Sequence record: PX880102.1
Length of the DNA: 64,000 bases
Source: a phage
Direction: 5' to 3' (one strand)
Shown here: positions 26,812-28,581 of the stretch, piece by piece
Position numbering within the stretch: position 1 is the stretch's first letter
Layout: each line of letters begins with the position of its first letter
The notes under the pieces: model-generated
What the model saw: the letters and a program-made list of their open reading frames with translations, nothing else
What the model was told of the DNA's origin: nothing
Database searches by the model: none
Position numbers and translations under genes: made by a program

Positions 26812-26976
26812 TTACTCTTCTTTTTCTTTAGATTCCTCTTTTTTCTTTTTAGGAATCTGTTCAGGACCTTTATTTACTACAGCACCTGATGTTGTTCCAG
26901 TAGAGATATTTTCAGGATTACCACCTGAATCTCCAGCAACCATATCTTCTTTAATAAATTCTTTATATGTTTTCAT
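26812..26976 (-). CDS. small acidic/lysine-rich ORF (54 aa)
   Basis: MKTYKEFIKEDMVAGDSGGNPENISTGTTSGAVVNKGPEQIPKKKKEESKEKEE; not in ORF track; low-complexity. Confidence 0.35.
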   Translation of the reverse strand: MKTYKEFIKEDMVAGDSGGNPENISTGTTSGAVVNKGPEQIPKKKKEESKEKEE

Positions 26977-26977
26977 A

Positions 26978-27334
26978 TTAACCTCTATTCATAAAAGCAT
27001 TAAAAATTTGGTCATCAATCGATGGAATAGCAACTTTTTCTGCATCATTTAGCAAATCATTAATTTCATCAGATAGCATAACACATGTACCTTTATTTCC
27101 TGTAATTGTTACTGCACAATTACGAACGTTTTCTTTATTAAATTTTAGGTTAATATTTTCGTAATGAAAATCCTTTAATGCTGAATATATTTTTAAAATA
27201 AAATTGTCTTTTACTACAATAAACCCAACCTCACTATTAAAACGTGGTTCATGGAAACTGTAATAAACCTTTTCATCTATAAAATCGTATGAAATTTTTT
27301 CCATTTTTAAATATGAAAATTCAGAACTATACAT
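26978..27334 (-). CDS. hypothetical protein (118 aa), VKDN-repeat family
   Basis: shares C-terminus IDDQIFNAFMNRG and a VKDN segment with the next gene. Confidence 0.55.
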   Translation of the reverse strand: MYSSEFSYLKMEKISYDFIDEKVYYSFHEPRFNSEVGFIVVKDNFILKIYSALKDFHYENINLKFNKENVRNCAVTITGNKGTCVMLSDEINDLLNDAEKVAIPSIDDQIFNAFMNRG

Positions 27335-27335
27335 A

Positions 27336-27977
27336 TTAACCTTTATTCATAAAAGCATTAAAAATTTGATCGTCAATAGAAACTTTTACTTTAGGATGTT
27401 CTTCAAACGGTAATTCATATCCACATATTACAATTTTGTGATCGATACCAAAATACACAGAAGCAATATGATTAATATTATTTTCAGTGAAATCTAAATC
27501 AACATCAATATCTTTTTGACTAACGCTCAAAGGATAATTAATACGAATAATTCGATTATCTTTAACAAAGATTCCACCGACATACTCTGTGTTGCGTTTA
27601 AAGTTTACACGTTTCCTAAATGAAAAATATTCAGGTTCTTTATGAGCCCGACTCATAGGACACAATGAGTAGCTAGAATAAGAGATGTCAAATCCTACAC
27701 CTTCAATATGAGCCAACGTGTCATGATTAAACCAATTATAATCATATGCCAAATCCATTATATTGTAATATGTGAAAGGCACCGGATTAACATCATATAT
27801 TGTACCTTTAAAATCTGCCCAGGCAACGATTTCATTATCTTTAACAATTACAAAAATTGTGCCAATAAGATATCCACGGTTATTTTCATCAGGCGTTATA
27901 TTATAACATTGCGCATCAGGAAATTTACCGTATTTAAACGGTGGATTTTTGTGCATATAATAAATCATATTATTCAC
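27336..27977 (-). CDS. hypothetical protein (213 aa) with two internal VKDN repeats
   Basis: IFVIVKDNEIVAW and GIFVKDNRIIRINY repeats; C-terminus IDDQIFNAFMNKG. Confidence 0.55.
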   Translation of the reverse strand: MNNMIYYMHKNPPFKYGKFPDAQCYNITPDENNRGYLIGTIFVIVKDNEIVAWADFKGTIYDVNPVPFTYYNIMDLAYDYNWFNHDTLAHIEGVGFDISYSSYSLCPMSRAHKEPEYFSFRKRVNFKRNTEYVGGIFVKDNRIIRINYPLSVSQKDIDVDLDFTENNINHIASVYFGIDHKIVICGYELPFEEHPKVKVSIDDQIFNAFMNKG

Positions 27978-28263
27978 CTGTGATTTCGGTTACGATATCT
28001 TTGTTATCAAAATTAGGGTCACAATACAAAACATAGTTATACTGCATCACACCACCTGATTTAAGCTGTTTTTGTACTTCAACTTTCATATTGGGACGAT
28101 CACGCTCAACGATATTCATAATATCCGCTTCAATTTGAGTTTCAACTTCAGTCTGATCTGCAGTCATAGACCATTCACACAAATCTTTATCATAACCTGC
28201 CATAGCAGGCTGAGCAGCACAAGAAGCTAAAGCAAAAATTGCAGCAAAGATAAATTTTTTCAT
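27970..28263 (-). CDS. secreted/periplasmic small protein (97 aa)
   Basis: signal peptide MKKFIFAAIFALASCAAQPAMA. Confidence 0.55.
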   Translation of the reverse strand: MKKFIFAAIFALASCAAQPAMAGYDKDLCEWSMTADQTEVETQIEADIMNIVERDRPNMKVEVQKQLKSGGVMQYNYVLYCDPNFDNKDIVTEITGE

Positions 28264-28289: not shown

Positions 28290-28345
28290 ATATAGTATCT
28301 CAATTTCCAACAAAAGTAAACAGCTATTTTAAAACTTCTGCATAA
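28290..28345 (-). promoter_or_regulatory. T4-type early promoter
   Basis: minus-strand GTTTAC (plus 28316-28321), -10 TACTAT, SD GAGGAG. Confidence 0.5.
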
Positions 28346-28581
28346 TCACATGTTACAAACTGTTTCTCTAACTTGACGATTTTACGAAAATACCTTTTAC
28401 ACTGACGAATCTGTCGCTTCGTAGGACGTACAGCAAACTTAATAAATTCCACTCGACCAAATGGAGGACTTTCTTCTGCTGGAATATCTAGCACCAATTC
28501 CCACGTATCTGCAATAAGTGCTTTGAATTGCGTATTTTTCCTGACGTTATACGGAGTAGGTTTAAATAAAACAATATGCAT
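28324..28581 (-). CDS. hypothetical protein (85 aa)
   Basis: ORF-track start trimmed to the ATG after SD GAGGATAAT, adjacent to the dmd stop. Confidence 0.5.
   Translation of the reverse strand: MHIVLFKPTPYNVRKNTQFKALIADTWELVLDIPAEESPPFGRVEFIKFAVRPTKRQIRQCKRYFRKIVKLEKQFVTCDYAEVLK

Follow-up and report, generated by a model that had tools for sequence, protein, structure and literature searches.

Two adjacent genes in the 61-41 accessory interval of a T4-like phage (Tequatrovirus) end in almost the same 49 nucleotides (nt), and the question raised by this locus is how two gene ends came to be so alike and what the likeness allows the phage to do. The window that we analysed is the whole of a 64,000-nt stretch of phage DNA (sequence record PX880102.1), and the region in question is 99.9% identical to Escherichia phage vB_EcoM-UFV09 and its siblings. 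In our view, the repeat is probably a 3' module common to two tandem AdfA-family genes, which diverged long ago and lie in an anti-toxin island, and exchange between the two tails probably adds or removes a cassette of one gene. The features needed to follow the argument are these:

27332..27380, minus strand: repeat copy A, made up of the 14 final codons of adfA (SIDDQIFNAFMNKG), its TAA stop, a single-base spacer, and the start codon ATG of the short paralogue; its Shine-Dalgarno sequence is weakened (AAAGGT)
26974..27022, minus strand: repeat copy B, made up of the 14 final codons of the short paralogue (SIDDQIFNAFMNRG), its TAA stop, a single-base spacer, and the start codon ATG of gene 61.1; its Shine-Dalgarno sequence is GAGG
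27336..27968, minus strand: adfA (gp61.2, anti-DarT factor A), 210 amino acids (aa), Pfam PF23813 with E 1.5e-136, start as in relatives
26978..27334, minus strand: short AdfA-like paralogue, 118 aa (RB32ORF033c, ar1_036, phrog_4122), homologous to AdfA residues ~111-210
26812..26976, minus strand: gene 61.1, 54 aa, which starts at the ATG that closes repeat copy B

A direct repeat spaced by one gene unit

A repeat search of the window returned two direct copies of 49 nt that are identical at 45 of 49 positions (92%), lying 2 nt away from where a sequence-only reading of the same DNA had placed them. The copies start 358 nt apart, which is exactly one gene unit, i.e., the 118-aa open reading frame (ORF), its stop codon, and a 1-nt spacer. 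The perfect 25-nt core, TATTCATAAAAGCATTAAAAATTTG, occurs exactly twice in the 64-kb window even when up to three mismatches are allowed, compared with 0.00 expected occurrences (100 shuffles). The coding strand is the minus strand, on which each copy reads as 14 sense codons (S-IDDQIFNAFMN[R/K]G) closed by TAA, after which a single base precedes the ATG that starts the next gene; the encoded peptide is SIDDQIFNAFMN(R/K)G.

Each copy thus holds a gene end, a Shine-Dalgarno sequence, and the next start codon, as the sequence-only reading had it, but the Shine-Dalgarno sequence (GAGG, or AAGG in the upstream copy) falls within the last two codons and not between the genes, and the spacer is a single base. 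In copy B, the GAGG is 5 nt upstream of the ATG (junction AGA GGT TAA T ATG). With stop and next start a few bases apart and the Shine-Dalgarno sequence inside the upstream coding sequence, these junctions have the makeup of translational-coupling junctions, and we infer that the TAA-N-ATG junction couples translation of the genes it adjoins. The same TAA-T-ATG arrangement is found at the junction of sp (spackle) and adfA (27966-27977, GGT GAA TAA T ATG).

The long gene is adfA

The product of the long gene matches Pfam AdfA (PF23813) over the entire profile (positions 1-211 of 211) with 452.9 bits against a cut-off of 27, and this match identifies the gene as adfA (gp61.2), which encodes an established anti-DarT factor and went unnoticed in the sequence-only reading. 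AdfA is gp61.2 of T4 and inhibits the toxin DarT (LeRoux et al. 2022, as summarised in PMC11257639/PMC11825919 and PMC9391042), and a histidine at RB69 position 164 is needed for neutralisation of DarT1 (PMC11257639). The 210-aa gene of the window encodes a histidine at this position (His167, in NINHIAS, allowing for a 4-aa earlier start and a 1-aa indel), and its product is predicted to bind DarT. The start annotated in relatives is the ATG at 27968, one base past the stop of sp (210 aa, MIYYMHKN...), and it is most likely the start of adfA here as well. The 213-aa ORF described previously does exist; it opens at GTG 27977 and overlaps sp by 8 nt, and this GTG is probably not the true start.

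The long protein had also been credited with two internal VKDN repeats. These repeats are weakly supported. Sequence comparison of the N-terminal and C-terminal halves found no significant similarity (BLASTP E 0.097; HHalign probability 12%), and it is only in the predicted order of secondary structure that the halves agree. In the AlphaFold model of AdfA, which is of moderate confidence (predicted local distance difference test score, pLDDT, of 69), strands 38-43, 46-51, and 57-64 are followed by helix 67-77 in the N-terminal half, and in parallel order strands 126-136, 139-146, and 151-159 are followed by helix 162-173 in the C-terminal half. The VKDN motif is modelled as the beta-hairpin turn in each unit. 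From these models, an ancient internal duplication within AdfA is plausible, short of demonstrated.

No known fold was matched by the AdfA family. A Foldseek search against viral models returned only the family itself and one 118-aa viral protein (23% identity), which may be the short paralogue; a wider family search recovered just 5 representatives among 1.84 billion proteins, word-indexed searches recovered close relatives only, and NCBIfam gave no match. The N-terminal half of adfA occurs in two classes that are ~62% identical, found in 255 and 230 phage records. The adfA of PE37 (L030:1866-2501) is a mosaic of a window-type N-terminal half and a T4-type C-terminal half, compared with the window gene (27336-27968) and with L001:2133-2759.

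The short gene is a half-size paralogue of adfA

The 118-aa protein aligns with AdfA residues 114-213 at 37% identity over 106 aa (BLASTP, E 5e-11), HHalign pairs the two with 97.7% probability over 95 columns, and the protein passes the gathering cut-off of Pfam AdfA (34.4 bits; cut-off 27) with profile positions 113-211 only. The two proteins are therefore related beyond their 13 terminal residues, as had been proposed from the sequence alone. The RB51 record already annotates the gene (RB32ORF033c / ar1_036) as "similar to gp61.2".

The short protein has in common with AdfA the C-terminal half of the profile, the C-terminal tail, and location in the dmd-tifA-adfA island. It differs in having no N-terminal half, and hence not the full two-half architecture of ~210 aa, in carrying Asn72 where AdfA has the specificity residue His167, and in being assigned by PHROGs to a separate family, phrog_4122. 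Judged by architecture and key histidine, the short gene is best termed a half-size paralogue and not an AdfA. It evolves under purifying selection (ratio of nonsynonymous to synonymous substitution rates, dN/dS, 0.19-0.29 against diverged orthologues), and its AlphaFold model (pLDDT 76.5) places strands 34-42, 45-51, and 56-64 before helix 67-78. Its homology, the purifying selection on it, and its neighbourhood are the three grounds on which we regard the short protein as most likely a single-domain AdfA-like toxin binder of different specificity.

In phage FL12 (L023:1190-2190, PP400786), the short paralogue carries a frameshift, the copies of the repeat are spaced by 357 rather than 358 nt, and the only ORF annotated there has 102 nt. 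The AdfA of the same phage has Asn in place of His at the DarT1-specificity position (NINNIAS).

Relatives differ by exactly one repeat period

Three layouts occur naturally: adfA only, as in T4, where adfA adjoins 61.1 and the module is present as a single copy; adfA followed by the short gene; and the short gene only (T2 type). Global alignment of T4 with slur03, both of which have the T4-type adfA allele, produced one gap of exactly 358 nt at 96.3% identity. Similarly, alignment of a locus with the window-type allele (L006; L numbers are labels of the 59 phage loci in our tail survey) with the window produced one gap of exactly 358 nt at 96.6% identity. Both gaps can be placed anywhere within the repeat. 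The recombination at the repeat that the sequence-only reading had suspected gains support from these exact 358-nt presence/absence differences between close relatives.

The tail of L006 joins adfA-type 5' codons (GAC GAT) to 61.1-linked 3' codons (AGA GGT), and the crossover therefore lies inside the 25-nt perfect core. The T4 junction was considered as a chimera of the two window copies as well, and this was dropped: its GAT GAC codons are those of the T4-type adfA 3' allele. More widely, the last two codons follow the downstream gene. Every gene before 61.1 ends in AGA GGT, and every adfA before the short gene ends in AAA GGT or AGA GAT (9 of 9 genomes, whichever of the two alleles they carry); this linkage to the downstream gene is what tail-to-tail crossovers would yield. 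Taken as they stand in the sequences, these patterns point to homologous exchange between tails as the source of the one-period differences.

In the phage collection, adfA (N-terminal half) was found in 487 records, the adfA-to-short junction in 158, and the sp-to-short junction without adfA (T2 type) in 141, the latter two giving 299 records with the short gene at a threshold of at least 60% identity. Gaprivervirus offers a parallel, with the short gene present in L004 and not in L044. Published surveys list T2 as without an adfA homologue; T2 (L003:1985-2005) and 140 other records lack adfA and have the short paralogue immediately after sp. These T2-type genomes have a 12-nt spacer, TTAGAGGTTAGT, that agrees in 10 of its 12 letters with the end of the tail module, ATAGAGGTTAAT, and looks like a remnant of a deleted adfA.

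The GAGG is broken in tails that precede the short gene, by AAA GGT or AGA GAT in Tequatrovirus and by CGA GAT in Gaprivervirus (window 27336-27345 vs 26978-26987; loci L002, L008, L022, L023, L047, L049, L050, L057, L004, L005, L009, L010, and L053). It is kept in tails that precede other genes, with L044 as the sole exception. Linkage of the Shine-Dalgarno sequence to the downstream gene accounts for most of this pattern; alternatively, the substitutions, which differ between the two genera, might stem from selection for weak initiation of the short gene. The record of Yersinia phage phiD1 (L047:1100-2900, HE956711) contains the 49-nt repeat four times, the short gene twice in identical form, and a 194-nt partial copy with Ns; this array reflects either genuine tandem amplification at the repeats (or a mixed stock) or a mis-assembly across them.

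The same tail ends three groups of genes

The tail peptide (S/A/D)(I/V)DDQIFNAFM(N/K)(R/K)(G/D), followed by TAA, TGA, or TAG, one base, and ATG, stands at the end of genes of three groups: AdfA of Tequatrovirus and RB69-like phages, the short family of Tequatrovirus and Gaprivervirus, and a family of 145 aa (phrog_8539; VR7ORF039c, JS98 ORF030c-like). Alignments of the phrog_8539 family with AdfA or the short gene covered only the last 15-17 residues, and no homology beyond the tail was detected. In Gaprivervirus, the phrog_8539 gene adjoins the short gene and both bear the tail, which creates the same direct-repeat geometry as in the window. Four downstream genes are joined to the module, namely the short gene, 61.1, a tifA-like DUF7279 gene, and an RB69-ORF033c-like gene.

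The 145-aa phrog_8539 gene occupies the same slot after sp (L004:1559-1996, L005, L009, L010, L016-L021, L044, L053, and L055). It encodes a hairpin-like motif, VDSDDRIV, that is a faint echo of VKDNEIV.

In both AlphaFold models, the tail forms the terminal helix (AdfA 198-207; short protein 106-115). Tail differences between genera are synonymous (CAA/CAG, GCT/GCC/GCA, TTT/TTC, ATT/ATA, and AGA/CGA), and the primary constraint therefore acts on the peptide. Conservation of the tail peptide and the initiation signals across three genera indicates purifying selection on both. No match to the tail-coding pattern came up among 185,579 species genomes of bacteria and archaea, and in IMG/VR and metagenomes it was found in T-even contigs only.

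Constraint on the peptide and probable exchange between tails

If the tail is conserved as a peptide, its identity at the nucleotide level could follow from that conservation, and the choice of codons bears on this. The two tails of the window use identical codons at 10 of 13 shared residues, compared with 7.5 expected from codon usage (P = 0.12 taken alone); the tails of RB51 do so at 11 of 13 (P = 0.033) and those of slur03 at 13 of 13 (P = 4e-4). Set against the gene bodies, in which identical residues have the same codon in 7 of 24 cases, the window tails have an excess of identical codons (Fisher p = 0.0075). A 24-nt core, CAA ATT TTT AAT GCT TTT ATG AAT, is present in all Tequatrovirus tails examined, whichever family they end. 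On contig L010, a perfect run of 37 nt is shared by the tails of the phrog_8539 and short genes, the bodies of which are not detectably related, and in comparison with the VR7 and MN01 orthologues, each of these tails carries codons typical of the other. The excess of codon identity in tails over bodies, counted over few sites, suggests homogenisation by occasional gene conversion or crossover.

The alternative that survives best is constraint at the protein level alone, i.e., a shared C-terminal helix written in AT-rich codons, with no role for the repeat in recombination and with the cassette differences produced by other routes. The expectation of 7.5 of 13 codons, the non-significant window value taken by itself, and the ordinary synonymous variation of tails between genera all agree with it, and it covers most of the identity. 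It does not cover the tail-vs-body contrast or the indels, which measure exactly one repeat period with either adfA allele, and the complete codon match in slur03, the 37-nt run joining tails of genes with unrelated bodies in L010, and the chimeric tail of L006 also stand against it. We consider this account unlikely as a full explanation.

Several points nevertheless weigh against a shared module that is exchanged between AdfA-family genes. The excess of codon identity is carried by 13 codons and does not reach significance in the window alone, and AT-biased codon usage by itself predicts more than half of the identical codons. The change in the cassette fits loss or gain alike, and recombination is deduced from natural variation, in which no product is directly observed. 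With regard to function, which is predicted from sequence, the short protein has Asn where AdfA needs His for DarT1 neutralisation. The AlphaFold models of both proteins are of moderate confidence, and the tail helix within them scores only ~60.

An element acting at the level of the nucleotides, such as an RNA structure, a nuclease site, or a translational operator that regulates the downstream genes, would fit a module that holds the Shine-Dalgarno sequence and start codon of the next gene and the invariance of the 24-nt core among the Tequatrovirus copies. In the mRNA sense, however, the repeat copies fold no more stably than shuffled sequences (z +1.37 and +0.06), the junctions had no Rfam match at E<=1, and no terminator-like site and no coding-strand promoter-like site overlapping either copy were found. 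The changes between genera fall at synonymous third positions, as coding constraint would have it, and we regard such an element as very improbable.

The two genes diverged before the genera did

The shared module might also simply be young, and the gene bodies bear on its age. Their 7 of 24 matching codons compare with 12 expected from the codon usage of the window. Full-length orthologues of the short gene occur in Gaprivervirus (VR7, MN01, and related contigs) and are ~46% identical to it, compared with 37% for the adfA of its own genome, and the adfA and short lineages therefore split before the genera did. The VR7 short protein is a full-length member of phrog_4122 (E 1.3e-54), and the short genes of the window and VR7 are separated by a synonymous divergence (dS) of 2.2 with a dN/dS of 0.19. 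As dated by these comparisons, the duplication that gave rise to adfA and the short gene is older than the split of Tequatrovirus and Gaprivervirus.

The sequence-only reading had proposed a recent duplication, on which view the 3' half of gp61.2 was copied in tandem not long ago, with the repeat as those ends of the copies that have yet to diverge. This view agrees with the adjacency of the two paralogues and the spacing of one gene unit, but is the least credible of the explanations, as the units are far from near identity over their length (37% aa identity, synonymous sites saturated outside the tail), codon identity in the bodies is under random expectation, the Gaprivervirus orthologues are closer than the paralogue in the same genome, and the same tail ends RB69-like AdfA and the phrog_8539 family.

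Position in the anti-toxin island

The minus-strand gene order is gene 41, dmd, 61.4 (tifA), sp, the gp61.2 homologue, the 118-aa ORF, 61.1, and gene 61 (primase), which agrees with the earlier placement of the repeat in the 61-41 accessory interval. The genes dmd, tifA, and adfA form a published island directed against toxin-antitoxin systems (PMC9391042). The members of the interval not listed above are:

27970..28263, minus strand: sp (spackle), joined to adfA by a TAA-T-ATG type junction and followed directly by the short paralogue in T2-type genomes
28324..28581, minus strand: tifA (61.4, DUF7279), ToxN inhibitor, in the published island context (PMC9391042)
28583..28765, minus strand: dmd (61.5), antitoxin against RnlA, in the published island context

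In PP01 (L028:1860-2470, NC_054930), sp and 61.4 are separated by two additional genes, of which one is annotated as goF mRNA metabolism modulator. These are further cassette-level variation within the same island.

A conserved gene end as a proposed site of cassette exchange

We propose the following account of the shared 3' module. The tail encodes a conserved C-terminal peptide, predicted to be a helix, and its last two codons double as the Shine-Dalgarno sequence of the next gene. Purifying selection on the peptide and the initiation signals, which are conserved in three genera, keeps the module near-identical, and occasional recombination, to which the excess codon identity and the chimeric tails point, would homogenise the copies. 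The 25-40 bp of perfect homology between copies brackets exactly one gene, and homologous exchange between them may remove or add the 358-bp short-paralogue cassette; the one-period difference is what we observe, and the exchange is the mechanism we put forward for it. Such exchange would account for the existence of natural Tequatroviruses with and without the cassette. T4 recombination is reportedly efficient from ~50 bp of homology, as Singer et al. are said to have found in 1982.

AdfA itself was known, and its paralogy with the short gene is hinted at in GenBank notes. What is new is that the repeat is a conserved functional terminus and not the scar of a recent duplication, that it bounds a recurrent one-gene presence/absence polymorphism, that a third family has the tail alone in common with the other two, and that T2-type phages, described as being without adfA, carry the short paralogue. 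The repeat flags an uncharacterised half-size AdfA paralogue inside the dmd-tifA-adfA island of ~300 sequenced T-even phages. The short gene is a candidate inhibitor of a DarT variant or another toxin, and it could help explain differences among T-even phages in their sensitivity to defence. The repeat-bounded cassette is a tractable natural example of gain and loss of a single counter-defence gene by homologous exchange at conserved gene ends. It introduces no new principle; it is a useful lead for anti-defence work that follows ordinary genetics, and it is not surprising.

A further and more speculative possibility, to which we give a small chance, is that the tail and junction form a portable joint with which anti-toxin cassettes are swapped, stacked, and dropped between sp and 61.1, and which may also be a shared docking helix acquired by unrelated inhibitor bodies. 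We raise it because three families end in the module, one of them otherwise dissimilar, because four downstream genes are joined to it, and because there are signs of homogenisation within genomes.

Comparison with known systems

It is a general phenomenon that the ends of tandem paralogues evolve in concert or undergo gene conversion. The locus resembles it in having highly diverged bodies and one segment of greater similarity within genomes than the bodies would lead one to expect, and differs in that the tract is just ~45 nt, with limited statistical support.

T4 recombines readily at homologies of 6-10 bp (Srikant et al. 2022, PMC9391042). Those events took place in the same neighbourhood and likewise involved gain and loss of anti-toxin genes via short direct repeats. 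They were observed in the laboratory at chance microhomologies of 6-10 bp, whereas the exchange proposed here would use a conserved 49-bp module (25-40 bp perfect) and is deduced from natural variation.

The repeat also resembles the PeSLs (2010, PMC2839356; Comeau et al. 2014, PMC4122927), which are likewise short, conserved motifs (tens of bp) that recur at the boundaries of genes in a plastic part of T4-type genomes, and between two copies of which genes are gained or lost in close relatives, as in the exact 358-nt gaps of T4/slur03 and L006/window. A PeSL combines a promoter with a terminator, whereas the repeat of the window consists of coding sequence with a Shine-Dalgarno sequence, a stop, and a start, and has no strong sigma-70-like early promoter and no stem-loop terminator. 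PeSLs are dispersed in the genome, while the tail repeat is limited to one gene family and one locus. As a PeSL itself, the repeat was ruled out, having neither promoter nor stem-loop. If the tail and junction do serve as a portable joint, the module would be a coding counterpart of the PeSL.

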